Positions 1,852 through 46,252 are shown, counted from the first letter of the stretch. The stretch: DNA of 64,000 bases from Patescibacteria group bacterium (GCA_036278915.1 DASUKB010000001.1:7259-71258); one strand, 5' to 3'. Program-made: numbers and translations. Notes: generated by a model from the letters alone, not told the origin.

Positions 1852-2355
1852 ATGTACAGTCATTAAAAACCAAATTAAGGAGCAACTAAAAACACTCGGT
1901 TTTTGAGCAAATTTCTTTGATCCCTGTTGTTGTATGGGATATCGAGGAACACGAAAGGCTCGTGTTTTTTACTTGCTAAAGTGGTTTTGTGAAGTACCTT
2001 AACAATTGCATACCCAAGAATTATCAATTAGATAATCAGTCTCGCAAAGTGCGGGATCGACAACCAATTGCAGATAATTTATTGGGAATAAGACGCCGAA
2101 CCTTTTGCCGTCAAGCTAAAGGGGAGGCAAAGACGTCAATTACTTTGATTCTAGATTCCCGTTTACGGGAACAAAGGTTTGCAATTTGACCTTTTAAAAA
2201 AATAAATTGCGCCAGTTTAATCTGATTTCAGATTACACTCACAAAATTATGACCTCACTCTTTTATTAAAGGGAAAGAGGTTAGCAAATACGGCTCTGCC
2301 GGATTTGCGATGTAGGAGAAAACCGCTAGGTTGTCTCCTACACATAATTCATTGA

Positions 2356-2399
<44 letters not shown>

Positions 2400-2516
2400 G
2401 ACATGCAAGTCGAGTGGGTTTAGACCCACGGCGAACGGGTGAGTAATACCTGGGAACTTTCTTCTAGTTGAGGATATCCTCCCGAAAGGGAGAGCAATAC
2501 TCGATGTGCCCAGCCC

Positions 2517-2805
2517 TTTTCTTAGTTGTATAATGTTAATTATGTATTATGTATATATAATCAAACATGATCCTTCCGGAGATATCTATATTGGATTCTC
2601 GGACAATGTTGATGCGAGATTGACTGCTCATAACAATGGGCAAAATACCTCAACACGAAGATTGTCTGGCCAATGGATACTAACATACACAGAAGCTTAT
2701 CGTTCAGAGCAAGATGCTCGTGAAAGAGAACGAAAGCTGAAACAGTACGGAAGCGCCAAACAGAGATTACTAAAAAGGATCTCAAGAAGTTTTGGAAACT
2801 GAGAA
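2517..2805 (+). other. intervening sequence (IVS) in the 16S gene, closed by a 12-bp stem
   Basis: CCCAGCCCTTTT at 2508-2519 pairs with AAAAGGGCTGGG at 2806-2817; the AT-rich interior interrupts otherwise conserved 16S sequence. Confidence 0.75.
2533..2802 (+). CDS. small GIY-YIG nuclease-superfamily protein (YhbQ/UPF0213-like) encoded inside the 16S IVS
   Basis: YVYIIKHDPSGDIYIGFSDNVDARLTAHNNG followed by an E/R/K-rich helix matches the GIY-YIG core; start codon uncertain (GTG 2506, ATG 2533 or ATG 2542). Confidence 0.7.
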   Translation: MLIMYYVYIIKHDPSGDIYIGFSDNVDARLTAHNNGQNTSTRRLSGQWILTYTEAYRSEQDARERERKLKQYGSAKQRLLKRISRSFGN

Positions 2806-2935
2806 AAGGGCTGGGTAAAGCAGCAATGCGCTAGATGTGAGGCCCGGGCCCCATCAGCTAGTTGGTAGGGTAACGGCCTACCAAGGCTATGACGGGTAGC
2901 GGAAGCGAGAGCTTGATCCGCCACACTGGGACTGC

Positions 2936-2968
<33 letters not shown>

Positions 2969-3463
2969 TTGGAATTTTGGACAATGGGCGAAAGCCTGAT
3001 CCAGCGACGCCGCGTGCACGAAGAAGGCCTTCGGGTTGTAAAGTGCTTTTGCTTGGGAAAAATTTTTGATTGTACCAAGAGAATAAGAGGTTGCTAACTC
3101 TGTGCCAGCAGCAGCGGTAATACAGAGACCTCAAGCGTTATCCGGAATCATTGGGCGTAAAGCGTACCGATAGGTGGTTTTGCAAGTTTTGGGTAAAAGC
3201 CAGAAGCTCAACTTCTGCGTTTGCTCAAAATACTGCAATACTAGAGGGACAAAGAGGTTGCTGGAACGAACGGTGTAGTAGTGAAATGCGTTGATATCGT
3301 TCGGAACACCGAAAGCGAAGGCAGGCAACTGGGTGTCACCTGACACTGCTAGGACGAAAGCGTGGGGAGCGAATGGGATTAGATACCCCAGTAGTCCACG
3401 CTGTAAACGATGAGTGCTAGGAATGCGCGAGTATCGACCCTCGTGCGATCCGTAGCTAACGCG

Positions 3464-3560
<97 letters not shown>

Positions 3561-3970
3561 GTAAGCGAGGAACCTTACCAAGGCTTGACATTCTTCTGCA
3601 AGCGCACGGAAACGTGTGACCTTCGAGGGTGAAGAACAGGTGCTGCACGGTTGTCGTCAGCTCGTGTCGTGAGATGTTCCCTTAAGTGGGAGAACGAGCG
3701 CAACCCCCATGTTATGTTGATTTTCATAACAGACTGCCGGCGTTTAAGCTGGAGGAAGGCGGGGATGACGTCAAATCAGCGTGGCTCTTACGCCTTGGGC
3801 GACACACGTGCTACAATGGATAGGAACAATGGGACGCAACACCGTAAGGTAGAGCAAATCCTCTCAAAAACTATCCTCAGTTCAGATTGAGGGCTGCAAC
3901 TCGCCCTCATGAAGCTGGAATCGCTAGTAACCGCAAATCAGCCTCGTTGCGGTGAATACGTTCTCGGGTT

Positions 3971-4001
<31 letters not shown>

Positions 4002-4341
4002 GGTAAGTACCCAATATTTGCGCAAGCGAACGAAGGTAAGTATCATGACTGGGGTGAAGTCGTAACAAGGCATCGGTAGCGGAAGCTGTCGATGGATCAC
4101 CTCCTTTCTAAGGAGAATTCTGCAGAAACAGGAATCATTTCGATGAATCCTGCGGAGCAGTAATGATGGTCGATTCAGAATTGAAGCTCGCAAGAGCAGA
4201 TATTCTGAACACATCAAGACTCTGACGTTTATGTGGTTTTCGAAAGAGAATCGCAATCTTATTCCCAATAAATTGTCTGGAACCTGAAGGGTTTCTTATG
4301 ATGGAAAGCCTGGTGGCCTCACGGTCACAGGCTTTTTAAAT

Positions 4342-6500: not shown

Positions 6501-9413
6501 ATGATAAACAAATTTCAACGTTATAGTTTGCCCCTGACGGTTCTAGTTTTTGCTTTCGCTTATCTTTTGTTGGCGGCGCCGCACGCACACGCCGCAACCA
6601 ATTATTATGCCTCACCGGCTGATCAAGGCTTGGGAGATTGTTCATCGGCCGGCAACGCTTGCGATTTGTTGCAAGCGCTGACCGCGGCATTTAATAACAC
6701 GACTGATTCGACTGTAATGATGTCGGCCGGGACTTATGCCGGTTTTTTCAGTTTTGATACTTCCTTTGGCCATGTCTTCACCCTCACAGGAGCCGGAAAT
6801 GATGTGACTATAATTGAGCCGACAGGAAGCACTGGCATGGAAATTGGGACGCTATCCACTATCAGCATTAATGATGTCGCATTTGATAATAATGCCGACG
6901 GTCGGGGACTGACGATTGATTCTGAAGGGAGTTTGACTGTAAACGACTGCGTGTTCTCCGGTAATGCCGGCGGCGGCCTTATTGACACTCACTTCGCGAA
7001 TACCGGCAGCGTGAGCATCATCAACGACACATTTACCAATAACAGTTCCAGTGGCGATGGCGCGGCATTTTCCTTTACTGACAACGGTACGACTGCGGCT
7101 ATGCCGATCACGGTCTGGGATACCGATTTCGAGAATAATACCTCGACCGGTGGTTCGGGAGGAGCCATCTCTATTGGTTCCAACTCGAATTCTTCACCCG
7201 TATTGATTAGAAGCAATAATTTCAGCGGCAATACCGCGGCCAATATCGGCGGCGCTGTTTATGCTTTCACTACCGGTACAAATTCTGGAATTACTTTAGG
7301 CGATGGAGGGTTGGGGCATGACAACACGATTACCGATAATACAGCCCACGTGGACGCCGGTGGATTTTATATAGATACTGATGGCGACGGCAGTCCTGTC
7401 ACCATTGAAAATAACACTGTCGGTACGACAGGCCACGGCAATAGTTCCGGTGATTTCGGCGGCGGCGGTAAGGTTTTTGCTGGGTCTGGCCTCACCTTGA
7501 TTGGCAATACCTTTACGGATAATACCGCGGGAGGCAATGCCGGCGGCTTGGGCGTACTAATTGACAGAGACGACGGCAATACTTCCGATAATTCTATCGC
7601 CAACAACACTTTTACAAACAACACCGCGCACTTTGATGGCGGTGGCCTAAATCTGAGCGTAAGTTATGCGGGTAATTTAACTGTCGACGCCAACACTTTT
7701 ACAAACAACACCGCAACTACAGGAGAGGGCGGCGGCTTTCGGTTGCAGCAGTTTGCGTCTAGCTCGCAAGTGGTTGTGACCAACAATTTGCTCGTGAATA
7801 ATACCTCCGGTACGGAGTCTGGAGGGTTTGATTACTACGATCAATCATCCGCGGGTTTAGACTTTATCAACAACACAGTTGCCGACAATATCGCCGGGAA
7901 CAAAGTCGGTGGCGCGAATTTCGGAGTGGATAATATAACCGCCGATTTGAATATTTATAATAATATTTTTTGGGGAAACACCAGCAATTCCGCCCACGAC
8001 GTGCATATAGATCATTTCAACTTTGATGTGACAAAGTTCTATAACAACGATTCATTTGATTTTTGCCTGCACGTTGAAGCTCTTGACGAAGACAGTTGCT
8101 TCGACTCAACCGGTATGGCACCAAATTTTAACGGTGATGCGGGTGTTAACGGAGTTTATGATCTAGGGAGGGGCAATATAAAGGATGACCCGGAATTCAC
8201 AGATGCGGATAATGGCGACTACACGCTGACGGAATTCTCTCCGGCTTTGGATAGCGGGTTGGATACGGCTCCGAATTTGCCCGGGCACGATATTACCGGC
8301 AATGGCCGCATCCAACATACCCACGCAGATATGGGAGCGTATGAATTAATCATTCCGGCTCAAGATTTGGTTCCGTATGTTTTAACTGCCATAACTCCAA
8401 TCCCGGATCATGTGGATGGTACGACTGCAACTTATACTTTTTCCGCTACCGGAACCGGAGAAGCGGAATATGTAGCTCAAACATGCGGCGGGAGTTCCCA
8501 AGCCAGCATGACGGAGATTACGGATCATCCGGAGGCCCAGCAATTTATTGTCACCAATTTAACACCCGGTCAGACTTATTCATGCAATTTTGAGGTTTTA
8601 TCCATTGCTGGTTATTCCAACCAACTAGACGTGGGTCCGTTCACAGTAAATGATAACGGGGCTGTCCCCGTGCAATTTTTGATTGATCAAACAAGAGCCA
8701 CAGCGCATCCGGACGGTACGCTCGTGCTGGATGGCCAGACAGTGTACCTCATCAAAGACGGCAAACGGTATGGCTTCCGTGATCCGAGCGAATACGAATC
8801 CTACGGATACAACTTTAGCCAAGTGGTGCCAGCTAACGATTCCGACATCAGATTGGGATTTGATCCTGCAAATATTATGAAAGCCATGCCCGGGACATTG
8901 GTGCTGGACAAGTCCGACGGCCGCACCGTATATATGATTGGAGAAAATTATACCAAGCGTGGGTTTGTCTCATCTGCAGTGTTTAAAGATTTGGGGTATA
9001 CGTTTAAAAATCTGCCGACGATTGATTTGTCGGATTACCCGACCGGCCCTGCCGTTGACTCAGCAACAGATGCCCATCCGGAAGGGTCGCTCGTGTTGGA
9101 CAGCAAAACTGTCTGGTGGATTTTGAATGGCGTAAAGCTTGGATTTGAAAGCATGACTGTGTTTAATACCTACGGATTTTCCCTGAATCGCGTGGTCAAA
9201 GCGGACAGCTCAGATTTGGAGCTGCCCACGGGCAATCTGATTCCGTTGCGCGACGGCACACTTGTGCTAGATGGCGGAAATTATTATATAATCTCCGATG
9301 GCGCCAAACGCCAGTTTGCTACACCTGCGGCTCTATCCAACTGGGGTTATAAAAGTGGCAACGCGGTAAATACAACGATATCATCTTATCTAGATGGCCA
9401 GCTGATTAATTAA
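6501..9413 (+). CDS. giant secreted protein: signal peptide, long right-handed parallel beta-helix (pectin-lyase-fold) region, then four C-terminal 60-aa repeats
   Basis: N-terminal signal MINKFQRYSLPLTVLVFAFAYLLLAAPHAHA; many N-N-T-F-T-N-N-T-A/G-G-G repeats; four GTLVLDG..VY.I..G.R..F...F...GY.F repeats at the C-terminus. Confidence 0.7.
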   Translation: MINKFQRYSLPLTVLVFAFAYLLLAAPHAHAATNYYASPADQGLGDCSSAGNACDLLQALTAAFNNTTDSTVMMSAGTYAGFFSFDTSFGHVFTLTGAGNDVTIIEPTGSTGMEIGTLSTISINDVAFDNNADGRGLTIDSEGSLTVNDCVFSGNAGGGLIDTHFANTGSVSIINDTFTNNSSSGDGAAFSFTDNGTTAAMPITVWDTDFENNTSTGGSGGAISIGSNSNSSPVLIRSNNFSGNTAANIGGAVYAFTTGTNSGITLGDGGLGHDNTITDNTAHVDAGGFYIDTDGDGSPVTIENNTVGTTGHGNSSGDFGGGGKVFAGSGLTLIGNTFTDNTAGGNAGGLGVLIDRDDGNTSDNSIANNTFTNNTAHFDGGGLNLSVSYAGNLTVDANTFTNNTATTGEGGGFRLQQFASSSQVVVTNNLLVNNTSGTESGGFDYYDQSSAGLDFINNTVADNIAGNKVGGANFGVDNITADLNIYNNIFWGNTSNSAHDVHIDHFNFDVTKFYNNDSFDFCLHVEALDEDSCFDSTGMAPNFNGDAGVNGVYDLGRGNIKDDPEFTDADNGDYTLTEFSPALDSGLDTAPNLPGHDITGNGRIQHTHADMGAYELIIPAQDLVPYVLTAITPIPDHVDGTTATYTFSATGTGEAEYVAQTCGGSSQASMTEITDHPEAQQFIVTNLTPGQTYSCNFEVLSIAGYSNQLDVGPFTVNDNGAVPVQFLIDQTRATAHPDGTLVLDGQTVYLIKDGKRYGFRDPSEYESYGYNFSQVVPANDSDIRLGFDPANIMKAMPGTLVLDKSDGRTVYMIGENYTKRGFVSSAVFKDLGYTFKNLPTIDLSDYPTGPAVDSATDAHPEGSLVLDSKTVWWILNGVKLGFESMTVFNTYGFSLNRVVKADSSDLELPTGNLIPLRDGTLVLDGGNYYIISDGAKRQFATPAALSNWGYKSGNAVNTTISSYLDGQLIN

Positions 9414-11144: not shown

Positions 11145-11534
11145 ATGGCATACAAGCTGGTGGTGATTGTGGCCGTGTGCTGGCTGACGTGGTTTATGGT
11201 GCGCACTGTCCTGGCCGGCCGGGTATTGGCGACCGTCTTCTACGATGAGGACAGGCTTGCACTCCACCGAGATAGCGCCCGTCTCTGCCTTTGGTTGACT
11301 TTTGGACTAGTTGCCCTGATAGAGTTCGGGGTGCGCTGGCACAGCAAAGCCAACTATGGATTGATGTTCGAGATCCACCTTTGCTTTGCTCTGCCATTTC
11401 TGGCTCTGCTTGTGGTACTCAACCGGTTTGCCACAGGTCTGAAGAGTGCAAACCACGGGCTCTTGGCTTACTTGTGTCTTGCAATGTTTGCGGGCATGCT
11501 CGTCACTGGCACAGTGCTGCTGTATCGTCTTTAG
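11145..11534 (+). CDS. small 4-TM membrane protein, hypothetical
   Basis: four hydrophobic helices; starts 12 nt after the zinc-ribbon ORF. Confidence 0.55.
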   Translation: MAYKLVVIVAVCWLTWFMVRTVLAGRVLATVFYDEDRLALHRDSARLCLWLTFGLVALIEFGVRWHSKANYGLMFEIHLCFALPFLALLVVLNRFATGLKSANHGLLAYLCLAMFAGMLVTGTVLLYRL

Positions 11535-11607
11535 GCAGAAGCCTCAATTGAAAAAGCTACTTAAGAGAGAAATCCTTAAGTAGCTTTTTACTTTTGGCGT
11601 AAAAATT

Positions 11608-12450
11608 TTAACTCACTCCAATCATAATGCTAAATACTAATAACAAAATTAGTGAGAATCTATACATGCGTCTGGCCCAAAGCCCCGTGTCGGGAGTATT
11701 TAATCCGCGAAAAGCCATTGCCAGCCAATATAGTCCCAAAATTCCCACGACCGCCAAGTACCGCCAGCCGACAAATCTGAAGACATATAGCATGGACGCA
11801 GATACAAGATAAAGAACGATAAGCACGATTATAGAAAGTTTCGTGTAGCGGATGCCCTTCTCTGCCGGCAGTACGGGCACGTGCGCTGCTTGGTAATCGC
11901 GCAGCCGATATATTGCGATCGCATAAAAATGCGGCAATTGCCAAATGACCATTATTAAAAATAAAATCAAACCTTCCCACCCTATGCGGCCAGTGACTGC
12001 GGTAAACCCGGCCAATATAGAAACCGCGCCTGGCAAAGTGCCAATAGTGGCCGCATGCAAGGTGCGGACTTTGAGCGGCGTGTAAACCCCGACATAAAGC
12101 AGTATGCCGGATAAGACTACAAGCATAGTTAAAGTGTTGGTAAACCAAAACAGTATAGCCAGTCCGACTGCGGCCAAAATTACGGCAAAGATAACGGCGT
12201 TTCTGGTTCCGGTTTGGTTTAAAATTTGCCGCCGGTTTTGAGTGCGCGGCATAAGTTCGTCTATGCCGCGATCCAGTAAATTATTTAGAACACAGCCTGC
12301 AGCAATAGATAATGCTACTCCTGCCAGCATGGCCACAAAAAGTCCTGGATGAAAGACGTCTTTTGAAGCTAAGAAAAATGCGGCAATTGCCGTGAGGCTG
12401 TTGCCATAAATAATACCCGGTTTGGTGAGCCGATAGTAAGCCGAAAGCAT
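11608..12450 (-). CDS. cyoE: protoheme IX farnesyltransferase (heme O synthase, UbiA family)
   Basis: UbiA-type polytopic membrane protein directly downstream of cyoD in conserved operon order. Confidence 0.85.
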   Translation of the reverse strand: MLSAYYRLTKPGIIYGNSLTAIAAFFLASKDVFHPGLFVAMLAGVALSIAAGCVLNNLLDRGIDELMPRTQNRRQILNQTGTRNAVIFAVILAAVGLAILFWFTNTLTMLVVLSGILLYVGVYTPLKVRTLHAATIGTLPGAVSILAGFTAVTGRIGWEGLILFLIMVIWQLPHFYAIAIYRLRDYQAAHVPVLPAEKGIRYTKLSIIVLIVLYLVSASMLYVFRFVGWRYLAVVGILGLYWLAMAFRGLNTPDTGLWARRMYRFSLILLLVFSIMIGVS

Positions 12451-12792
12451 TTAGAATCCTCCTTCCTGGCTTGTGATGTAGTCCTGAATTTGCTGGGGCG
12501 TCATATTGTAATTAAGATTGGCCATAATCCAAAGACTGCCGACGACGATAATCAAAATTAATCCTACCGTTGAGACAAACATTGCCAAGTTCCAGTGTGG
12601 ACGTGGCTCTGACCCCACGTGCAGGAAAAATATCAGCTGCACCACAAGCTGCACCAAAGCCAGTGTCAGAATGGCGAAAATTAGTTTATTGCCGGCAAAC
12701 GTCTGGTCCACTACCAGCTTGTATGCTAAGAGCGTTAAAAAGATAGACAGCAGCAAACCCAAGACATATTTAAATACGGTTTTTTGGTTCAT
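12451..12792 (-). CDS. cyoD: cytochrome bo3 ubiquinol oxidase subunit IV
   Basis: MNQKTVFKYVLGLLLSIF...WIMANLNYNM matches CyoD; ATGA overlap with cyoC; the ORF track's longer N-terminal extension is rejected. Confidence 0.85.
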   Translation of the reverse strand: MNQKTVFKYVLGLLLSIFLTLLAYKLVVDQTFAGNKLIFAILTLALVQLVVQLIFFLHVGSEPRPHWNLAMFVSTVGLILIIVVGSLWIMANLNYNMTPQQIQDYITSQEGGF

Positions 12793-13382
12793 CGGGCGGC
12801 TCCCATAAGGTAAACAATAGTAAAGATAAAGATCCAAACGATATCCAGGAAATGCCAGAACAGACCCAGCCGGACGAGTTTGCTTTTGATGCTCGCAGTT
12901 AAGCCTCGCACATGCATCATAACCATAGACACTGCAATCCAAAACAGGCCTACTGTAATATGCAAGCCGTGCGTGCCAACGAGCGTGAAGAACGCGGACA
13001 GAAATCCGCTGTTGCGAAAGCTTTGGCCGTCTGCCAAAAGATGCGAAAATTCGCGCAGCTCTAAGCCCAAGAAAGTCGCGCCAAGTAAGAATGTGATGCC
13101 AAACCAAAGATAGGCTTGCTTTTTGCTGCCGGCATTTGCGGCCAGAACTGCCAGGCCGCAGGTAAAACTGCTGGTAAGCAAAATCAAAGTTTCTGCCAGA
13201 GCTTGCGGCAATTTCAGAAGTTCGCCAGCGGTTGGGCCGCCGAATGTGTTGTTGCGAAGTACGGCGTACACCGCAAACAACACGGCAAACATCGTCAGGT
13301 CTGTCATAAGATAGACCCAGAAGCCGAAAATGACTCTGTCGTTATGTTCGTGTTCTACGGGTTGGATGTTGTTATCGGCCAT
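12789..13382 (-). CDS. cyoC: cytochrome bo3 ubiquinol oxidase subunit III
   Basis: MADNNIQPVEHEHNDRVIFGFWVYLMTD... is CyoC-like; start 4 nt after the cyoB stop. Confidence 0.85.
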   Translation of the reverse strand: MADNNIQPVEHEHNDRVIFGFWVYLMTDLTMFAVLFAVYAVLRNNTFGGPTAGELLKLPQALAETLILLTSSFTCGLAVLAANAGSKKQAYLWFGITFLLGATFLGLELREFSHLLADGQSFRNSGFLSAFFTLVGTHGLHITVGLFWIAVSMVMMHVRGLTASIKSKLVRLGLFWHFLDIVWIFIFTIVYLMGAAR

Positions 13383-13386
13383 AAGT

Positions 13387-15357
13387 TTAGTGTAATGTTT
13401 CTTTTTCTTCCAATTGTCGCAGTTCGGAAGCGGTAATAACGTACTCGGTGTCATCGTCGTACGCGCGGATAATGACGCAGATGATTGCACCGGCAAATCC
13501 CAAAATTCCAAGCCAGAGAATATGCCAGACAAACGCAAAGCCTAACAGAAATATAAATCCCGACAGATAAATTCCGAGCCCGGTGTTTTTGGACATCGTA
13601 ATATCCTGGTAATTTTTCGGTTTGGTCAGGCCCTTCTGTTTCATATTCCAAAATGCATCGCGGCTCTCAACCGTCGGTATGACCGCGAAGTTATAATGCG
13701 GCGGCGGGGAGGATGTGGCCCATTCCAGAGTCCGGCCATTCCAAGGATCACCTGTTAGATCCCGATTTTCTTTGCGCTGTTTGAAGCTTACGAAAATCTG
13801 AAGGACTTGCAAGAGCGCGCCAATGCCAATGATGCAAATGCCAATGAGCGCTGTTATAAAGAGCGGTTGCCACCCGGTGCCGGCGTCATAATGATCCAGC
13901 CGGCGCGTGGCGCCCATTAGTCCAAGCAGATACAGCGGCGTGAATGCCGTAAAAAATCCGACCAGCCAGCACCAGAACGCGTATTTGCCGAGGCGTTCGT
14001 TGAGCCGGAAGCCTGTGACTTTGGGAAACCAGTAAGTGATGCCGGCAAATATGCCAAATAGCGCGCCGCCGATGACCATGGTATGGAAATGCGCCACCAA
14101 AAATAAAGTGTTGTGCAGTTGAAAATCCGCCGCGGGCGAAGCAAGTAAAAGTCCTGCGATGCCGCCAAACGTAAAGGTGCTTATGAATCCCAAAAACCAA
14201 AACATCGGAGTCTTGAAGATAATCCGGCCGCGGAACATAGTGAGAAGCCAGTTGAAAATTTGCACCGCAGTTGGGATGCCGATAATCATAGTCATGATGC
14301 CGAAGAAAGCGTTGACGTCGGCGCCGGCGCCCATGGTAAAAAAGTGGTGGAGCCAGACTACGAACGCGATACCGGTAATGCCAAAGGCCGCGGCTACCAT
14401 TGAGTAGTATCCGAATAATTTTTTCTGCGAGAAAGTAGATACGACTTCCGAGTATATGCCGAAACCAGGGATAATAAGCACGTAGACTTCCGGATGTCCC
14501 CAAGTCCAAATGAGGTTGACGTACATCATCATATTGCCGCCAAATCCTGCGGTGAAAAAATGCATGCCGAAAAACCGGTCGAGCCAGAGCAGGGCAATAG
14601 TCGCGGCCAGAATCGGAAAGATAGCCACAACAAGCGACGAGCTAAGGAGTGCGGTCCAGGTAAACATCGGCATCCGGAAAAGCGTCATGCCAGGCGCGCG
14701 CATTTTGATGATGGTTACCAGAAAATTAATTCCGCCAAGCATGGTGCCCAGCCCGGAAATTTGCAGGCTCCATATCCAATAATCCACGCCCGTACCCGGA
14801 TTGAACGCCAGTTCTGACAATGGCGGCAAGGCCAGCCAGCCCGTGGCCGCAAAGTCGCCGCCAATGACAAAAAATAAATTGATAAACACCGCGCCCGCCA
14901 CATACAGCCAAAAGCCCAAAGAATTGAGAAATGGAAACGCCAGGTCGCGCGTGCCGATTTGCAGGGGCACTATGAAGTTGAGCAGGCCGAACAAAAATCC
15001 CATAGTCACGAAAAAAATCATAATGTCGCCGTGGGCCGTGAAAATCTGCTGGAAGTGGCTCGGGTCCAGGTAACCGTATGAAGCACCGGAAGATAAAGCC
15101 TGCTGGAGCCATATCATAACCGCATCCAGGGCGCCGCGGAAAAGCATAAGCGAAGCCATAATGATATACATAATCCCAATCCGTTTAGGATCAGTGGAGG
15201 TCAGCCACTCAGTCCAGAGCCATTTCCACCGTTTGGTGTAGGTGAGGAACAGCACGACGACTACGGACATAAGCAAAATAAAGCACGTCCCTCCTAAGGT
15301 GAACCATTGGTGGGGGAGCGCATCCGTCGTAAGATTTCCAATCAAAAAGTGTTGCAT
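13387..15357 (-). CDS. cyoB: cytochrome bo3 ubiquinol oxidase subunit I (heme-copper oxidase)
   Basis: near-verbatim CyoB blocks WIWSLQ, KMRAPGMT, NMMMYxNLIWxWGHPEVY, NRDLTGDPWxGRTLEWATSSPPP. Confidence 0.95.
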   Translation of the reverse strand: MQHFLIGNLTTDALPHQWFTLGGTCFILLMSVVVVLFLTYTKRWKWLWTEWLTSTDPKRIGIMYIIMASLMLFRGALDAVMIWLQQALSSGASYGYLDPSHFQQIFTAHGDIMIFFVTMGFLFGLLNFIVPLQIGTRDLAFPFLNSLGFWLYVAGAVFINLFFVIGGDFAATGWLALPPLSELAFNPGTGVDYWIWSLQISGLGTMLGGINFLVTIIKMRAPGMTLFRMPMFTWTALLSSSLVVAIFPILAATIALLWLDRFFGMHFFTAGFGGNMMMYVNLIWTWGHPEVYVLIIPGFGIYSEVVSTFSQKKLFGYYSMVAAAFGITGIAFVVWLHHFFTMGAGADVNAFFGIMTMIIGIPTAVQIFNWLLTMFRGRIIFKTPMFWFLGFISTFTFGGIAGLLLASPAADFQLHNTLFLVAHFHTMVIGGALFGIFAGITYWFPKVTGFRLNERLGKYAFWCWLVGFFTAFTPLYLLGLMGATRRLDHYDAGTGWQPLFITALIGICIIGIGALLQVLQIFVSFKQRKENRDLTGDPWNGRTLEWATSSPPPHYNFAVIPTVESRDAFWNMKQKGLTKPKNYQDITMSKNTGLGIYLSGFIFLLGFAFVWHILWLGILGFAGAIICVIIRAYDDDTEYVITASELRQLEEKETLH

Positions 15358-15362
15358 CTGAT

Positions 15363-16268
15363 TTACATATGCATGCCCGGCATGTCGGCATCTTGTCCGG
15401 CTTCCGGGGCCATAAATTTCATAATCACTTCGTTGTAAAGGTTGGGTTCCACTGGCGCAAAGAAGGCTTGCGGATTATATTCGCTCGGCTTTGCCAGGTC
15501 GTTATACCCGGCTAAAGTCAGCTCAGAGGATGTTGCCTGCATCGAGTTTAGCCAGGAATTGAAATCATCTGAAGATACGGATTTGGCCGTAAACTTCATG
15601 CCCGCAAAACCTGCGCCATTGATTTCCGCGGCCGTGCCCGCGTATTCACCAGCGGAGTCGGCCATAAGGTTGAGCTGGGTGACCATACCCGGCATAGCGT
15701 ACATTTGTCCTCCTAATTGTGGAATCCAAAACGAACTCATTGGTGCGTCTGCTGTTAACTGGAAATTCACGGGCGTATTTTGTGGAAATTCCACGAAGTT
15801 TACCGTAGCGATATTTTGTCCAGGGTAGATAAACAGCCACTTCCACTGCAGGGCCACGACTTGGATGGTCAAAGTTTTTGTGCCTGGGTCAATTTTTTTG
15901 TAAGGGTCCACGGCGTGGCTTGTGTTCCAGGTCAAAATTCCAAGCAATACAACAATAGCCGCTGGCAGGCCCCATCGAATGAATTCCCATTCCAGATTGT
16001 GGTCCCACTCCGGCTGGTAGTCTGCTTGTTCGTTTGTGGCCCGGTACTTGTAGGCGATTACAAATGTCGCTACCAAAAGCGGCACGGCCAAGGTCAGCAT
16101 AAGCAGTACCGCCGTAAACATAGTACTGCGTTCTTGGTGCGCGATAATGCCTTGAGGATTGAGTAACTGGAAATTGTGCCCGCGCAAAAGGAGGCTGATC
16201 GTGATAATGGTTGCAGCAACTAGCAAAATCGGCAGAATAATTTTTAATTTTTTTGAAATTTGTTTCAT
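15363..16268 (-). CDS. cyoA: cytochrome bo3 ubiquinol oxidase subunit II
   Basis: signal/TM start MKQISKKLKIILPILLVAA, quinol-oxidase subunit II fold; TATAAT-like -10 and GAGG SD just upstream of the ATG at 16268 (ORF track extends to 16301). Confidence 0.85.
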   Translation of the reverse strand: MKQISKKLKIILPILLVAATIITISLLLRGHNFQLLNPQGIIAHQERSTMFTAVLLMLTLAVPLLVATFVIAYKYRATNEQADYQPEWDHNLEWEFIRWGLPAAIVVLLGILTWNTSHAVDPYKKIDPGTKTLTIQVVALQWKWLFIYPGQNIATVNFVEFPQNTPVNFQLTADAPMSSFWIPQLGGQMYAMPGMVTQLNLMADSAGEYAGTAAEINGAGFAGMKFTAKSVSSDDFNSWLNSMQATSSELTLAGYNDLAKPSEYNPQAFFAPVEPNLYNEVIMKFMAPEAGQDADMPGMHM

Positions 16269-16350
16269 TCGGAATTGCCTCAAATGCATTATATCACGCA
16301 AAAAAACAACGGAGAAGTCAAGTCTGGCTTTTCCGTGTTGTTCCTTGAAT

Positions 16351-16692
16351 TTAAATTTGAAAAACCAGATACAGCGCGGTGAAGAACAGTCCTACGTCGC
16401 GGAAGGTTTCCAAGAAAATTCCTCGGCCAAAGCCGTTGAGGAAAATAATCGCCAAAAAATCCAAAGCCGTAAGTGCTGCAAACACGCGCGTCTTCCAGTT
16501 GGACAGCAATAGCAGCCCTAAGATAATTTCTCCGCCGCCGTGCAAATGAAGCGCGAGTTCTCGGCTAACCCCGAAATTTTCTACCCAGGCCGGAACAAAC
16601 CCGACCCAGTCGTTGATGTGCACAAACGAGTCAATGCCGGCAAACAAGAGCGTGAACGCCAACCCGACTTGCAGCAGGTATTTGGTTTTCAT
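16351..16692 (-). CDS. DoxX-family small membrane protein
   Basis: 113 aa, three to four TM helices, DoxX-like pattern; immediately upstream of and co-oriented with cyoA. Confidence 0.55.
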   Translation of the reverse strand: MKTKYLLQVGLAFTLLFAGIDSFVHINDWVGFVPAWVENFGVSRELALHLHGGGEIILGLLLLSNWKTRVFAALTALDFLAIIFLNGFGRGIFLETFRDVGLFFTALYLVFQI

Positions 16693-21420: not shown

Positions 21421-21497
21421 GGGCGACTAGCTCAGGTGGTTAGAGCGCGTCACTGATAATGACGAGGTCGATGGTTCGAGTCCATCGTCGCCCACCA
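21421..21497 (+). tRNA. tRNA-Ile (anticodon GAU)
   Basis: cloverleaf GGGCGAC/GTCGCCC acceptor, anticodon loop CTGATAA, T-loop TTCGAGT, encoded CCA. Confidence 0.9.
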
Positions 21498-21526
21498 TTG
21501 GCGGATAAATATTTTAAAACCAAAAC

Positions 21527-21766
21527 ATGAGATTTATTTGGGGCCTCGTTTGGATAGCCATCGGCGTCGGCGTTATAAAATACAGTTTTCAAATTACGAA
21601 TTTTTTCGGACATGTGCCTTGGGCCGAACAGCATATCGGCGGCGGCGGCACTTACACAATGTATAAAATTGCCGGGATCGTAATTATAATATTCGCGTTT
21701 TTGTATATGTTCGGCAATACTGGATTTTTAACTGGCCGTCTGGCACCTCTTTTTGGCGGAGGCTAA
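21527..21766 (+). CDS. small 2-TM membrane protein, hypothetical
   Basis: two hydrophobic helices, Gly-rich ends. Confidence 0.4.
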   Translation: MRFIWGLVWIAIGVGVIKYSFQITNFFGHVPWAEQHIGGGGTYTMYKIAGIVIIIFAFLYMFGNTGFLTGRLAPLFGGG

Positions 21767-21830
21767 TGTTTTCTACGTGAATTAAAACGCCAGCGCGGTT
21801 TGATTTTGTGAGGAGCGGTATGTTCGGGGA

Positions 21831-21904
21831 GGGCCGTTAGCATAGTGGTAGTGCAGTCGGTTTGCATCCGACAGGCGCGAGTCCGATTCTCGCACGGTCC
21901 ACCA
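21831..21904 (+). tRNA. tRNA-Ala (anticodon UGC)
   Basis: anticodon loop TTTGCAT; G3:U70 alanine identity pair in the acceptor stem; encoded CCA. Confidence 0.8.
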
Positions 21905-37411: not shown

Positions 37412-40400
37412 ATGAAACAAAAACAAAATTTGAAAAAAAAAGTTGACAAAATTGGAGTGATCATCCTAATTTCCTTGATTTCTGCTGGGCAGTTTTTTGT
37501 TATGCCCAAGAAAGCGGGAGCAATCACGGAAACATATTACGTGGATGCCACAAACGGCAGCGATGCCAATACGGGAACGGATACCTCTCATCCATGGCAA
37601 ACGATAGCAAAAGTCAATTCATCAGTTTTCCAACCAGGAGATTCCGTACTATTTAAACGCGGGGAAACATGGCGGGAAACTTTGATCCCGCCGTCTTCTG
37701 GCACATCTGGAGATGTAATCAGTTTTGGCGCGTATGGAAGCGGGACGAATCCGGTAATCACCGGCGCGAATTTAATTTCTTCGTCATGGACACAGGCCAC
37801 GGAGCCGTATGATATCGTCCTCCAAAGGACAAGCGGAGTAGACTCTTCCAACTTCCCAAGACTTACTGGAGAGTCTGGCGGAACTACATACCCGGACGGC
37901 ATAGTTACAAGATTTAATTCTACTGATGGGACTTGGGGTAATCCATTTGATGGAGATCTTTACTTCAAAACCTATGACGACAGTTCAGCGGTTGTGGACC
38001 AGCAAGCGCTTAGTAATTTTCCATTTTTAAATTTGTCGAACGTTGCCAGTCAAACCAAATGGTCGCAGGGGTACAAACCGAGCGTTAATTTTTCTCTTTC
38101 TCAAATTGTACTGAAGATGTATAAATCGGGCAATCCTACAGACAACGTTTTTGTCACCATCAACAAAGATGAAAACCAAGCACCTGGTGCAGTGATTCCA
38201 AACGGACAAAGTTCTAACGTTAGCTCGACCACTCTGACTTCCACTTCTCCGGGGACTGATGTTACTTTTACTTTCCCCGTAGCGCCCAGCCTGGTCCACG
38301 ATGCTGTTACCAACGTCTGGCAGACCACAGTGGCGACCCAACCCGAAGTCGTGGAATTTGACGGAGTGTTTGGGAACAAAAAAACATCCGTAGACGACCT
38401 CGCGCAGGCGAATGATTGGTATTGGTCGGGAAACACATTGTATGTATATTCCACAACAGACCCCGCTGTTACGTATGCGAATCCAGGAATTGAGATTGCT
38501 CAGCGGAATTATGCTTTGGACTTTAATGCCAAAAGCAATCTCGCGTTCCAAGATATAGACTTTGTGGCTGGTAATACTTATGACATTTTTATGGAAGGCA
38601 CTGCGACCGATATACTTTTTGATTCAGTGGGAATCTATGGTGCCTACGAAGAAGGCATAAACCACCAAAGTGCGTTTCACGCTTCAAACATTGATATCCA
38701 GAATTCAACCGTTGCTTACAATGGCGCAGAAGGAATTGCGGCTGTGGGGAACAGCGACCATTGGATTATTCAAAACAATATTGTGCACAACAACGGTTAC
38801 ACCGACGAAAGCGGAGGAGTGGAGAATACCTGGGGGTCAGGGATCAAACTCGTGGGTGCGATCGGTGGGATTACTGTTTCGGACAGCATTGTCCAGTATA
38901 ACGACGTTTACTATAACGGATATAAAGATAATGGAATAACGAGAGTCCATGCTACGGCCAATAAAGGATTTGGCATTTGGCTTGATCTGGTAGATTCCGG
39001 CGATGTCCAGTCAGACGGCAACATTATCCGTTACAATAATGTCCACAACAATGCTGATTCGGGATTGATGATCGAAAAATCCCGTTATCAAACTTGGTAT
39101 GGCAATGTTTCGTATAATAACGCAGAATACGGCTTGCGCGTGGATGCGGACGCGAATGGGCCTGTATTGCACAACAATTTCTTCTACAACAATAGTTTCT
39201 TTGGCAACAGTTCGGGAATTTATGCGGCAGGCGGATATATGCAGGATGGCAATTACATTCAGGATAACGTGTTTGAAAATAATATATCTTCCGGCAATAC
39301 AAATTATCAGCTGCTCGCCAAATGGGGTGGCAATAACGACGGCACGCTTGGTTCCGGGAATATTTACGAATACAATTCTTTTGGACCGGAATCCCCGAAC
39401 TTTATAGAGTGGGGTGATGGTGTTTTCAAATCCACCTACGCCCAATTTGATGCAGCTTACGGCGCGGACACTCATTCTGCTTCCGGGGACCCATCGTTTG
39501 CCGCGGCCGGTTCCGCTAATTTTGCCTTAAGCTCCGTCTCTCCGGCTATCGATTCCGGATTGAATTTAGATAGTGTATTTCAGGCGGGTCTGGCCGCTGG
39601 TTCTGTCTGGCCGTCGTCGGTGACCACTCTCAGTCAAGACGGCAACGGGTCAGGTTGGGACCTCGGAGCGTTTGTGTATACACAATCAACTTTGCCGTTA
39701 GTTTCAATTACCAATCCCAATACCACGAATATTTCTGGCAAGTTGACGATTAGCGCTTCCGTGACCGTCAGCCAGCCCGCGACTATATCCCAAGTCCAAT
39801 TCCAATTGGATGGATCGGATTTGGGAAGCCCGGTCACCTCTGCACCGTACAGCATGGCATTAGATACGACGACTCTGATTAATGGGTCGCATACGATTAA
39901 TGCCACAGCCTTAGACAACTTCGGCAATACGGGAAGTTCAACAATCACCGCATTTGTTTCCAATGGCGGCAGCGGGCTTCCGGCAAGTGCCTTCAATCCT
40001 CCGGTAATTCCGGATGGCGGATTTAAAGTCATAATCAATAATGGCGATACCAGCACAACGGCTCAAACAGTTACATTGGATATGAATGCCGGATCCGACG
40101 TGGCCCGGATGGCAGTTTCCAACAGTTCGGATTTGGATTCAGCTGGGCAGCAAACCTATGCTCCTGACACTACTTGGGATTTGTGCGCCGGGTTCTCCTC
40201 CTGCGACGCAGGTTTAAAGACTGTGTATGTGAAATTCTATACATCTTACGGGCACGCCTCGGATCTTATTTCCGCTTCAATTAATTTCACGGCTACAGGG
40301 TCCGGTCAGGCCACATCGGTGAACTCAAATCTCGTAAACGACAACGGGACATATTATCTTATCCAAAATGGCCAAAGGCTGGGCATAACCTCTCCGGGAA

Positions 40401-40879
40401 TTCTCTTTACTTACGGATATGAATTCAAGGATGCGAGAGGATACTCTCCAGCCGATGCAAATATCCCGCTGGGACCTTTACTTACTCCTGACAATGGATC
40501 CTTAGTCAAGTCAGATAAAAATCCGACTGTATACCTTATTTCTCAAAATCAGAAACACGGCTTTGTGTCGGAGGAAGTCTTTCTGGGGTTGGGCTATAAA
40601 TTTTCATCCGTACTCACAGTCACCGATCCGGAACTTGCAAGACTTTCAAATGGTTTGGATCTCGCGACAGACCAGGCCAGTCATATGGACGGAATAAATG
40701 TTTTAGACAACCGGGGCACCATTTATTACATAGACCACCAGACTCTGCGGGCTTATCCATCGCAAGATATCTACAACAGCTGGCATTTGGATAATAATTT
40801 TTCAAATGTTGTTGCCGCGAACGCGTATGATTTGGCCTTGCCCAGAGTGAAGGACATTGACTTCAGACAGTCAAATTAA
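37412..40879 (+). CDS. giant secreted surface protein: signal/TM anchor, parallel beta-helix region, Ig-like domain, and a C-terminal 60-aa repeat module shared with the 6501-9413 protein
   Basis: beta-helix repeats NNIVHNNG/YNNVHNN; Ig-like segment around VSITNPNTTNISGKLTISA; C-terminal TYYLIQNGQRLGI / PTVYLISQNQKHGF / GTIYYIDHQTLRAY repeats. Confidence 0.65.
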   Translation: MKQKQNLKKKVDKIGVIILISLISAGQFFVMPKKAGAITETYYVDATNGSDANTGTDTSHPWQTIAKVNSSVFQPGDSVLFKRGETWRETLIPPSSGTSGDVISFGAYGSGTNPVITGANLISSSWTQATEPYDIVLQRTSGVDSSNFPRLTGESGGTTYPDGIVTRFNSTDGTWGNPFDGDLYFKTYDDSSAVVDQQALSNFPFLNLSNVASQTKWSQGYKPSVNFSLSQIVLKMYKSGNPTDNVFVTINKDENQAPGAVIPNGQSSNVSSTTLTSTSPGTDVTFTFPVAPSLVHDAVTNVWQTTVATQPEVVEFDGVFGNKKTSVDDLAQANDWYWSGNTLYVYSTTDPAVTYANPGIEIAQRNYALDFNAKSNLAFQDIDFVAGNTYDIFMEGTATDILFDSVGIYGAYEEGINHQSAFHASNIDIQNSTVAYNGAEGIAAVGNSDHWIIQNNIVHNNGYTDESGGVENTWGSGIKLVGAIGGITVSDSIVQYNDVYYNGYKDNGITRVHATANKGFGIWLDLVDSGDVQSDGNIIRYNNVHNNADSGLMIEKSRYQTWYGNVSYNNAEYGLRVDADANGPVLHNNFFYNNSFFGNSSGIYAAGGYMQDGNYIQDNVFENNISSGNTNYQLLAKWGGNNDGTLGSGNIYEYNSFGPESPNFIEWGDGVFKSTYAQFDAAYGADTHSASGDPSFAAAGSANFALSSVSPAIDSGLNLDSVFQAGLAAGSVWPSSVTTLSQDGNGSGWDLGAFVYTQSTLPLVSITNPNTTNISGKLTISASVTVSQPATISQVQFQLDGSDLGSPVTSAPYSMALDTTTLINGSHTINATALDNFGNTGSSTITAFVSNGGSGLPASAFNPPVIPDGGFKVIINNGDTSTTAQTVTLDMNAGSDVARMAVSNSSDLDSAGQQTYAPDTTWDLCAGFSSCDAGLKTVYVKFYTSYGHASDLISASINFTATGSGQATSVNSNLVNDNGTYYLIQNGQRLGITSPGILFTYGYEFKDARGYSPADANIPLGPLLTPDNGSLVKSDKNPTVYLISQNQKHGFVSEEVFLGLGYKFSSVLTVTDPELARLSNGLDLATDQASHMDGINVLDNRGTIYYIDHQTLRAYPSQDIYNSWHLDNNFSNVVAANAYDLALPRVKDIDFRQSN

Positions 40880-41241: not shown

Positions 41242-41704
41242 TGGAACAAGCTAATGCCAAAACAAACAAAAACCTCAAGTTTTAACGTAAAAAATATGAA
41301 ATTCTCCAGCAACTCACTTCAACGAAAGGCGGTTATGTAAACTGGCGCTTTAGTTTGTGCCCAGAATTCAACCGCCGAAAGGCGTTTTTTTGTTCCTTAC
41401 AACTAACATCTAGAATTCAGTGCTTCACCGCATTGCTTGACTTTAAGCAGGTTCTGAAAGTAAGCACTGTATTCTGGATGTAAGCGGATAGAACTTTAAC
41501 AATTTACCGGCATCTAAGAGATATATTTTCAGTTTGCCAAACGTATGAGAGATGATGAGTCTCGAAGGTAGGCGTTTAGCAAAACATAAGTTAGTGCTTA
41601 TGAATATATCTGAATCCAAATCCTCGGCATTGTAACCGGGGTAACTCTGGCTTAACTGTCGGAGTATAAAAAATAGCAATCACTAATTGCTAGTCAAGAA
41701 TCTG

Positions 41705-45168
<3,464 letters not shown>

Positions 45169-45239
45169 TTAAATTTTTGACTAGCGTTTTGTGATTATTA
45201 TCACAAGTTCATTTACATCCCCGCTTTCGCGGGGACAAG

Positions 45240-46134: not shown

Positions 46135-46252
46135 TCTCCTCGTGCTTCAAGGGCCGCTGCCCCACCCGATCCCATCCCGAACTCGGAAGTGAAACGCGGC
46201 ACCGCTCATGATACTCCAGTGTAAGACTGGTGGGAAAGTAGGCAGTGCGGGG
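46135..46252 (+). rRNA. rrf: 5S ribosomal RNA
   Basis: CCACCCGATCCCATCCCGAACTCGGAAGTGAAACG loop C/helix III block and 3' GAGAGTAGG-like segment; boundaries approximate. Confidence 0.8.

Follow-up and report, generated by a model that had tools for sequence, protein, structure and literature searches.

A 64-kb stretch of DNA from a Patescibacteria group bacterium (GCA_036278915.1, DASUKB010000001.1:7259-71258; "the window" below means this whole stretch of 64,000 nucleotides) carries an operon, cyoABCDE, for a cytochrome bo3 quinol oxidase. In our assessment the region very probably encodes a bo3-type oxidase of the A1 family of heme-copper oxidases (CyoABCD), complete, intact and maintained by selection, together with CyoE, and is native to a Doudnabacteria-like member of the candidate phyla radiation (CPR); the operon would be an old acquisition that has descended vertically since, with no recent import from Proteobacteria. 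The gene content, the conserved residues, the clade membership, the purifying selection and the host-like composition were observed directly. In addition, the catalytic subunit carries glutamine in place of the K-channel lysine. A lysine-free K-channel is well supported by sequence comparison in this largely CPR-labelled clade, where it is apparently undescribed.

Gene content of the operon

Five genes on one strand, identified by Pfam and NCBIfam models, follow one another in the canonical order (Table 1), and the first-pass annotation of this DNA, which had placed a complete cyoABCDE operon within 11608-16692, was right in this respect. Its description of the junctions as overlapping or abutting also fits what is found, with gaps of 5 nucleotides between cyoA and cyoB and 4 nucleotides between cyoB and cyoC, a 4-nucleotide ATGA overlap of cyoC and cyoD, and abutting cyoD and cyoE. 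The order cyoA-B-C-D(-E) is identical in 80 of 80 related loci. CyoA, CyoC, CyoD and CyoE score above their NCBIfam equivalog cutoffs and CyoB slightly below its own; for all subunits the scores with the Cyo models far exceed those with the Qox and Cta models. In the public annotation CyoB is 629 amino acids long, with an apparent start at TTG 15276, downstream of AGGAGG. Because homologues align along the full 656 amino acids from ATG 15357, this ATG was retained as the start, and the public start, as far as the alignments tell, is probably too short by 27 codons. For cyoA, a GAGG Shine-Dalgarno-like motif (16281-16278) lies 9 nucleotides ahead of ATG 16268; a second possible start, ATG at 16289, falls within the predicted -10 box.

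The bo3 oxidase operon of Escherichia coli (PDB 1FFT, 6WTI, 7CUB) has an identical set and arrangement of the five genes. CyoB is 58% identical to its E. coli counterpart over the full length, and the best PDB matches are chains of E. coli bo3 subunit I (1FFT, E=6e-260); for CyoA, CyoC, CyoD and CyoE the identities are 43, 54, 42 and 40%. The four-subunit A-type quinol oxidase aa3-600 of Bacillus and Staphylococcus (QoxABCD; PDB 6KOB) is a further relative, with a Staphylococcus QoxB that is 46% identical and has the same ligands and channels. It differs in that QoxB retains the lysine of the K-channel, with Glu for Q101, and the window proteins score far better on the CyoA-D than on the QoxA-D models.

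Conserved residues and the K-channel substitution

Alignment to E. coli CyoB places all six histidine ligands of heme b, heme o3 and CuB in the window protein (H109, H288, H337, H338, H423 and H425), together with the cross-linked tyrosine Y292 (E. coli Y288). These seven positions are invariant in 120 of the 120 closest database clusters, and the same holds for the D-channel residues D138, N127, N145 and E290 (E. coli D135, N124, N142 and E286). The quinol site, as defined in the literature, is kept with R74, D78, H101 and Q104 (E. coli R71, D75, H98 and Q101), and T363 and S303 of the K-channel (E. coli T359 and S299) are likewise present. Near-invariant columns in the 120 clusters include D75 and Q101 (119/120 each) and T359 (113/120). 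The heme and CuB ligands, cross-link tyrosine, D-channel and quinol site are thus the same as in E. coli bo3, and in both enzymes subunit II is without CuA. The window CyoA has no cysteine at all, hence neither a CuA site nor a lipobox, and in the latter it differs from the E. coli protein; the lipobox (LSGC) is lacking in all sampled CPR and Chlamydiae CyoA and is present in most of the proteobacterial CyoA sampled. Further differences from E. coli bo3 are Gln for E14, a residue of the described H98-E14 proton relay, and the clade-specific substitutions treated below.

The K-channel lysine (K362 in E. coli, K354 in Paracoccus denitrificans) corresponds to Gln366 in the window CyoB (codon 14260..14262, minus strand), within the motif IPTAVQIFNWL as compared with IPTGVKIFNWL in E. 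coli. In the 120 closest clusters this column reads Q in 110, L in 7, K in 2 and E in 1. Similarly, 28 of the 29 sequences of the window clade in our CyoB tree (described below) carry Q (20) or L (8), whereas all 58 other CyoB sequences, from Proteobacteria, Chlamydiae, the main Saccharimonadia clade and Yonathbacteria, carry K, as do QoxB and CtaD. The glutamate at the subunit II entrance of the K-channel (E. coli CyoA E89) is kept in the window CyoA, but across loci its presence follows the residue at position 362 of CyoB: it is found in 51 of 52 loci with K, in 9 of 20 with Q and in 0 of 8 with L. Locus L020 has retained the lysine and has Q at position 89. The main Saccharimonadia and Yonathbacteria clades keep both K362 and E89(II), whereas the window clade does not.

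Other substitutions accompany the loss of the lysine. R80 is replaced by Trp in 120/120 closest clusters and in 28/28 lysine-free members of the tree (W83 in the window, 15108-15110), and is Arg in 56 of the 58 other CyoB sequences and in distant oxidases without the lysine. The equivalent arginine in aa3 oxidases is presumably one that hydrogen-bonds the formyl group of the low-spin heme a. S159 and L160 are both replaced by Phe, a single Gly is inserted, Y173 is replaced by an aliphatic residue and W318 by a small one. A change of F368 to Ala or Ser was considered as a compensating substitution and dropped, as Ala is common there in lysine-bearing oxidases too.

Outside the family, 137 distant A-type representatives (clusters at 50% identity covering the site) carry K in 101 cases, Q in 17, L in 6 and other residues in 13 (including I in 4 and A in 3). 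Lysine loss therefore recurs in other A-type lineages, which makes the trait less unique to the window clade. Position 318 is aromatic in most of the lysine-bearing distant sequences and aliphatic in those without lysine. The latter are often subunit I+III fusions of approximately 840 amino acids, and no close solved structure was found for the distant oxidases of the Q type.

A literature search combining the K-channel with CPR, Patescibacteria, Saccharibacteria or quinol oxidases yielded no description of a substituted lysine. The retrieved passages of Nicolas 2021, Starr 2018 and Jaffe 2021 make no mention of this residue, and those of Starr 2018 (PMC6031116) speak only of an unspecified "discrepancy in the functional residues".

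One explanation for the substitution is that the enzyme is crippled or has been repurposed, acting as a slow O2 scavenger, as a non-pumping oxidase, or on NO or peroxide. In model oxidases, mutation of K362 leaves almost no activity, a matter on which Vygodina 1998, by its title, reportedly bears. The K-channel is held to supply the protons of both reductive steps, and its lysine, together with Thr, Ser and Tyr, is counted among the constituents of the A-type channel by Sousa 2011. Replacement by Q or L in 117 of 120 closest clusters and the uneven retention of Glu89(II) would fit such a loss of function, and O2 detoxification has been proposed by authors working on CPR bacteria (PMC8406219 and PMC6031116). 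Against this stand the metal ligands, cross-link tyrosine, D-channel, T359, S299 and quinol site, which are all kept in the window and nearly invariant in the 120 clusters, and a ratio of nonsynonymous to synonymous substitution rates (dN/dS) of 0.045-0.09 within the clade where dS is unsaturated, which indicates an enzyme under strong constraint. Oxidase-derived NO reductases alter the active site and lose both channels, a pattern not seen in the window. Gln, moreover, is the commonest natural replacement in other, uncharacterised A-type lineages, and this recurrence speaks for an alternative channel that can work rather than for decay. Thermus ba3 and other B-type oxidases function with a lysine-free analogue of the K-channel, by way of Thr, Ser and Tyr hydroxyls (Sousa 2011), and so set a precedent for proton conduction through a channel that bears Gln. 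The likeness to B-type enzymes, drawn here by analogy, would concern a possible mechanism only and not membership, because B-type oxidases have no D-channel and are distant in sequence, whereas the window enzyme is clearly A1-type, with the E286 equivalent and a full D-channel. We consider a crippled or repurposed enzyme unlikely. Instead we propose, with slightly more reserve than conviction, that a mostly CPR-labelled subfamily of bo3 oxidases may have given up the canonical K-channel (K362 to Q or L, Glu89(II) unconserved, the aromatic residue at 318 lost) while the rest of the enzyme remained under strong purifying selection.

Host genome and origin of the operon

The genomic setting is CPR-like, with a type IV pilus gene cluster and with unlinked rRNA genes that contain insertions; the first-pass annotation had argued the same from unlinked rRNA, abundant type IV pilus genes and a reduced genome. 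The 16S rRNA gene (2349-4107) measures 1759 nucleotides against a model of 1533 positions (~226 longer) and the 23S rRNA gene (41704-45172) 3469 against 2925 (~544 longer), with 5S at 46138; 16S and 23S are separated by 37 kb, and tRNA-Ile and tRNA-Ala stand by themselves at 21421-21904. The genes had also been called intron-bearing, which goes too far: no Rfam intron family matched within 16S or 23S, and only the extra length is seen. The pilus cluster spans 19.4-34.4 kb, and housekeeping genes in the window include dnaG, rpoD, holA and ligA. LigA is 100% identical to a protein labelled "Patescibacteria group bacterium" on a 385,993-bp NCBI contig, and its further matches, at 80-63% identity, are mostly labelled Doudnabacteria. 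Genes identical to those of the window are present in the metagenome SRR25158533. As LigA and CyoB are both nearest to Doudnabacteria-labelled genomes, the host is taken to be a Doudnabacteria-like CPR bacterium.

The CyoB sequence had been described as proteobacterial-like, which would suggest a recent import from an enterobacteria-like proteobacterium. The comparison does not bear this out. More than 120 database clusters, with CPR labels wherever the source is named, share 70-78% identity with the window CyoB. E. coli CyoB reaches only 58% and the remaining E. coli proteins 40-54% with their window counterparts, and among plasmid-borne proteobacterial CyoB the best match is likewise at 58%. 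Source labels among the 120 best clusters are Doudnabacteria, Patescibacteria and Saccharimonadales, with one "Methylomirabilota". The long stretches KMRAPGMT, GGNMMMYxNLIWxWGHPEVY and NRDLTGDPWxGRTLEWATSSPPP, which had been pointed out as near-verbatim enterobacterial motifs, are indeed present in the window and match E. coli, but they are conserved family-wide and equally so in Doudnabacteria CyoB, and so carry no signal of enterobacterial origin. On the other hand, K362Q/L, R80W, S159F and L160F were found in no sampled Proteobacteria.

A library of representatives at 50% identity merges the CyoB family, hence no phylogeny was drawn from it. A neighbour-joining (NJ) tree was calculated from 89 CyoB sequences over 653 columns, with 100 bootstraps and with CtaD of Rhodococcus and QoxB of Staphylococcus as the root. 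The window CyoB falls within a clade of 29 sequences with a bootstrap of 100%, most of which are labelled CPR (Doudna-, Pacei-, Lipton-, Levyi- and some Saccharibacteria); the other seven carry unverified labels, five "Gammaproteobacteria", one "Methylomirabilota" and one "Acidobacteriota". Separate clades are formed by the Yonathbacteria (bootstrap 100%), the Chlamydiae (99%) and the main Saccharimonadia (80%), and the nodes uniting CPR with Chlamydiae and uniting the Proteobacteria have bootstraps of 61% and 47%.

CPR-clade CyoB occurs on contigs labelled uncultured Gammaproteobacteria (loci L001, L002, L005, L010 and L016), Methylomirabilota (L004), Acidobacteriota (L019) and Dormiibacterota (L035), and the window LigA has matches at 68-70% identity that carry the labels Methylomirabilota, Binatia and Acidobacteriaceae. 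Probably these are mislabelled or mis-binned CPR contigs in public sets of metagenome-assembled genomes. A Pfam scan of the flanks of L001 ("Gammaproteobacteria") returned generic genes only (GH15, GH57, YchF, CtpA, HtrA and MurB), and its label remains unverified.

The composition of the operon is that of its surroundings, contrary to the deviation in GC content and codon usage that a recent arrival might show. GC content at third codon positions (GC3) is 0.48-0.62 in the cyo genes, compared with 0.45-0.61 in 29 other window genes, and synonymous-codon z-scores against the same genes lie between 0.1 and -1.0 for cyoA-D and doxX. Only cyoE is atypical in the operon (z=-2.8), with its lowest GC3 (0.484). 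No compositional step occurs at the operon borders.

Contigs that carry both cyo and ligA bear on descent in the window lineage. On the 964-kb Doudnabacteria contig JBBCGO010000001.1, cyo lies at 818-823 kb and a LysM-ligA pair at 785-787 kb, with CyoB and LigA both 73% identical to those of the window; on a 51.9-kb JGI contig the values are 73% for CyoB and 77% for LigA. The window shares the pair, with LysM on the minus and ligA on the plus strand, approximately 20 kb from cyo. CyoB and LigA have thus diverged in parallel on common contigs. This comes close to an old, vertically inherited CPR clade, which the first-pass annotation had named as an outcome that would speak against its proposal.

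Taken together, a recent transfer is largely refuted and, in our view, very unlikely. The motifs shared with E. coli, the somewhat atypical codon usage of cyoE and published trees that set CPR heme-copper oxidases beside or inside Proteobacteria, from which transfer was inferred, are outweighed by the identities, the 100% clade, the host-like GC3 and codon usage of cyoA-D, the clade-specific substitutions and the parallel divergence. Horizontal acquisition, as the first-pass annotation proposed, holds in an ancient sense, given the published inference and the grouping of CPR with Chlamydiae beside Proteobacteria at weak nodes, and not as a recent event. The data point to an operon that is ultimately foreign to CPR, acquired horizontally long ago, with Chlamydiae and Proteobacteria as nearest outgroups, and passed on vertically in the window lineage.

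Binning contamination, or a chimeric assembly that joined the operon to CPR sequence, would be another way to account for an oxidase in such a genome. The non-CPR labels (Gammaproteobacteria, Methylomirabilota and Acidobacteriota) on some related contigs indicate that mislabelling or mis-binning does occur in such data sets. However, the operon lies inside a contiguous 64 kb with CPR-type genes on both sides, 16S rRNA 7.5 kb upstream and the pilus cluster, ligA and 23S rRNA downstream, which makes binning irrelevant. The smooth composition across the borders also argues against a chimera, as do DoxX, encoded directly beside cyoA, and LigA, encoded 20 kb from it, whose 100% identical counterparts are both recorded on the one 385,993-bp Patescibacteria-labelled contig. 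An identical CyoB occurs in an independent Logan assembly, and cyo and ligA share a contig in both of the related genomes described above. We regard a contaminated or chimeric origin as most improbable.

Several observations weigh against an intact oxidase native to this lineage since an old acquisition. CyoB stays below its NCBIfam equivalog cutoff (994.2 vs 1020.35), and with the K-channel lysine absent, normal turnover is not guaranteed. The deep nodes (CPR with Chlamydiae, and Proteobacteria) are weak and come from NJ only, so that neither the donor nor the number of transfers is assignable from the tree. Several CPR classes are mixed within the window clade, which makes some transfer within CPR likely. 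Flanking genes are unconserved among species-representative loci: tblastn of 18 window proteins against the 80 loci and an all-against-all comparison of flanking open reading frames (ORFs) recovered almost no common neighbours. The flanks therefore decide neither way on vertical descent, and the contigs with both cyo and ligA were used instead. Finally, no gene for a quinone reductase, quinone biosynthesis or heme biosynthesis is visible within the 64-kb window; for quinone biosynthesis, this agrees with the first-pass annotation.

These findings agree with earlier reports of soil and environmental CPR operons in Doudnabacteria, Saccharibacteria (including Ca. Teamsevenus rhizospherense) and Parcubacteria, which share the operon, its gene order and the host group with the window. 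Nicolas 2021 (PMC8407418) describes the operon in three Doudnabacteria genomes in which quinone biosynthesis is absent, Jaffe 2021 (PMC8406219) in >50% of environmental Saccharibacteria, and Starr 2018 (PMC6031116) in a rhizosphere Saccharibacterium, for which scavenged quinone and heme were proposed. An ancient lateral origin from Proteobacteria or Chlamydiae is inferred in this literature, by Nicolas 2021 and Beam 2020, the latter deriving CPR heme-copper oxidases from Proteobacteria. A terminal oxidase in CPR bacteria is accordingly already known (soil Doudnabacteria, Saccharibacteria and Parcubacteria, 2018-2021). The first-pass judgement of noteworthy rather than unprecedented was fair, yet its estimate of novelty was too high, given that PMC8407418 already reports the operon in Doudnabacteria.

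Operon limits and neighbouring genes

Table 1. Genes and predicted signals of the cyo region, numbered from the first nucleotide of the window
Feature	Position	Strand	Evidence
Perfect hairpin (15-bp stem, 9-nt loop) with a T-run after it, in the interval from the cyoE stop to the end of the convergent gene at 11534	11551..11589		Read from sequence; predicted
cyoE, heme O synthase (protoheme IX farnesyltransferase)	11608..12450	-	TIGR01473 247.6 bits (cutoff 210.3); UbiA 167.6 bits
cyoD, subunit IV	12451..12792	-	TIGR02847 87 bits (cutoff 81.45); start-codon scan
cyoC, subunit III	12789..13382	-	TIGR02842 237 bits (cutoff 223.75)
cyoB, catalytic subunit I, 656 aa	13387..15357	-	COX1 453 bits; TIGR02843 CyoB 994.2 bits (cutoff 1020.35)
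cyoA, quinol oxidase subunit II	15363..16268	-	TIGR01433 271.7 bits (cutoff 266.2); COX2 and COX_ARM domains
Extended -10 box TGATATAAT, promoter-like, upstream of cyoA	16288..16296	-	Consensus match only; predicted
Terminator-like hairpin (16336-16309) with T-run (16308-16300, TGTTTTTTT tail), between the doxX stop and the cyoA -10 box	16300..16336	-	Stem from scan; predicted
doxX, DoxX-family small membrane protein, 113 aa	16351..16692	-	Pfam DoxX (PF07681) 27.8 bits (cutoff 23.6)

The hairpin scan admitted loops of up to 8 nucleotides, and the hairpin behind cyoE, with its longer loop, was read by eye; judging by its sequence, it is likely to be a bidirectional terminator that closes the operon. 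The gene converging on the end of cyoE (11145-11534, plus strand) encodes a predicted membrane protein of 129 amino acids with no Pfam match. Its sole homologue in the related loci, at 31% identity, stands in L006 on the same strand directly downstream of cyoE.

A DoxX-family gene precedes the operon, as the first-pass annotation had noted. The Pfam match is weak and real, spanning profile positions 7-82 of 85; no NCBIfam model matched, and the NCBI name of an identical protein is "DoxX family membrane protein". Its 36 homologues, at 48-76% identity, mark doxX as a real gene. A place in the operon is a different matter. DoxX could be a functional sixth component that is expressed together with the oxidase, perhaps as a partner that binds quinone: the gene lies on the same strand as cyoA, 58-82 nucleotides upstream, DoxX/DoxD-family proteins are associated with quinone chemistry, and a promoter-like site at 17376-17349 could transcribe g16723, doxX and onward. 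In the close relative L090, a 327-amino-acid protein with a weak DoxX match stands beside the flavin adenine dinucleotide (FAD)-linked oxidase that adjoins cyoA, but similarity between it and the window DoxX is not detectable. The predicted hairpin with its T-run and a separate extended -10 box between doxX and cyoA also speak against a common unit, and tblastn found no DoxX homologue in any of the 80 cyo loci. Moreover, three DoxX homologues (56-66% identity) adjoin genes for tsaD, a tRNA synthetase or an ATP-binding cassette transporter, with no cyo nearby. A role as sixth component is therefore quite unlikely to our minds, and DoxX is probably a chance neighbour outside the operon.

In the related loci, several gene families recur near cyo, namely FAD-linked oxidases resembling D-lactate dehydrogenase (19 loci), proteins like the type II NADH dehydrogenase NDH-2 (11), response regulators (9), copper P-type ATPases (8), polyprenyl synthases (7) and PAS histidine kinases (6); examples are L090:2927-4567, L092:4151-5800, L091:4604-5926, L046:16688-17887 and L053:18034-20154. 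The gene that adjoins cyoA in the three closest relatives is divergently oriented and encodes an FAD-linked oxidase or a DAO/Mqo-like flavoprotein. It is plausible that the recurrent neighbours are quinone reductases and cofactor helpers, and as a set they have the look of a small quinone-linked chain along with genes that regulate it. No member of these families was seen in the window.

In 22 related loci, mostly of the lysine-free clade, cyoE is immediately followed, as a rule on its own strand, by a conserved ORF for a predicted membrane protein of 81-83 amino acids (MIL..HI.......S...), for example at L090:10703-10954, L091:10722-10967 and L092:10792-11040. The versions in the three closest relatives share 41-67% identity, and the ORF may represent a sixth operon gene. 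Nothing like it was found by tblastn in the window, which thus differs from many of its CPR relatives in having neither the adjacent flavoprotein dehydrogenase nor the small ORF behind cyoE.

Elsewhere in the window, the genes at 6501-9413, 37412-40879, 56489-59095 and 59183-61783 encode four very large proteins (866-1155 amino acids) that are predicted to be secreted or exposed at the surface, with domains that include beta-helix, Big_7, dockerin, TSP3 and TPR. Such proteins, together with a type IV pilus cluster, are typical of an attachment-dependent lifestyle.

Proposed mechanism and significance

By homology with E. coli bo3, the following scheme can be outlined. CyoE would farnesylate heme b, obtained by scavenging, to give heme o. 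The quinol, of probable host origin, would be reduced by a flavoprotein dehydrogenase or NDH-2 encoded elsewhere in the genome, as in relatives, and would be bound and oxidized by CyoB at the conserved Arg/Asp/His/Gln site. Electrons would then reach the heme o3-CuB centre by way of low-spin heme b, and O2 would be reduced to water there, with protons taken up through the intact D-channel. With Gln366 in place of the lysine, the protons of the reductive half-cycle would have to arrive by a remodelled, lysine-free channel based on water or hydroxyl groups, or more slowly. The role of the enzyme could be low-flux respiration and/or removal of O2 in oxic soil. That the enzyme is catalytically active, pumps protons and relies on quinone and heme from a host is proposed here by analogy, as is its physiological role.

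For the lineage, the window adds one well-assembled example in which the operon appears as a stable native part of the genome. In relatives, the flavoprotein dehydrogenases, NDH-2 and copper ATPases beside cyo point towards a minimal respiratory chain that uses borrowed quinone. For the family, more than 100 sequence clusters make up a natural, strongly conserved A1-type clade without the K-channel lysine, many of whose members also lack the glutamate of subunit II. Mutation of this lysine is the classic block of the reductive half-cycle, and a naturally lysine-free, otherwise canonical bo3 oxidase would offer a system for studying proton delivery. If such enzymes are active, an A1-type oxidase can dispense with the "essential" lysine in delivering its reductive-phase protons; these could travel along a chain of water or hydroxyl groups as in B-type oxidases, or through the D-channel alone, and the arrangement may suit low-flux respiration on host quinone. 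This bears on the question of whether the oxidases of CPR bacteria conserve energy or merely remove O2.

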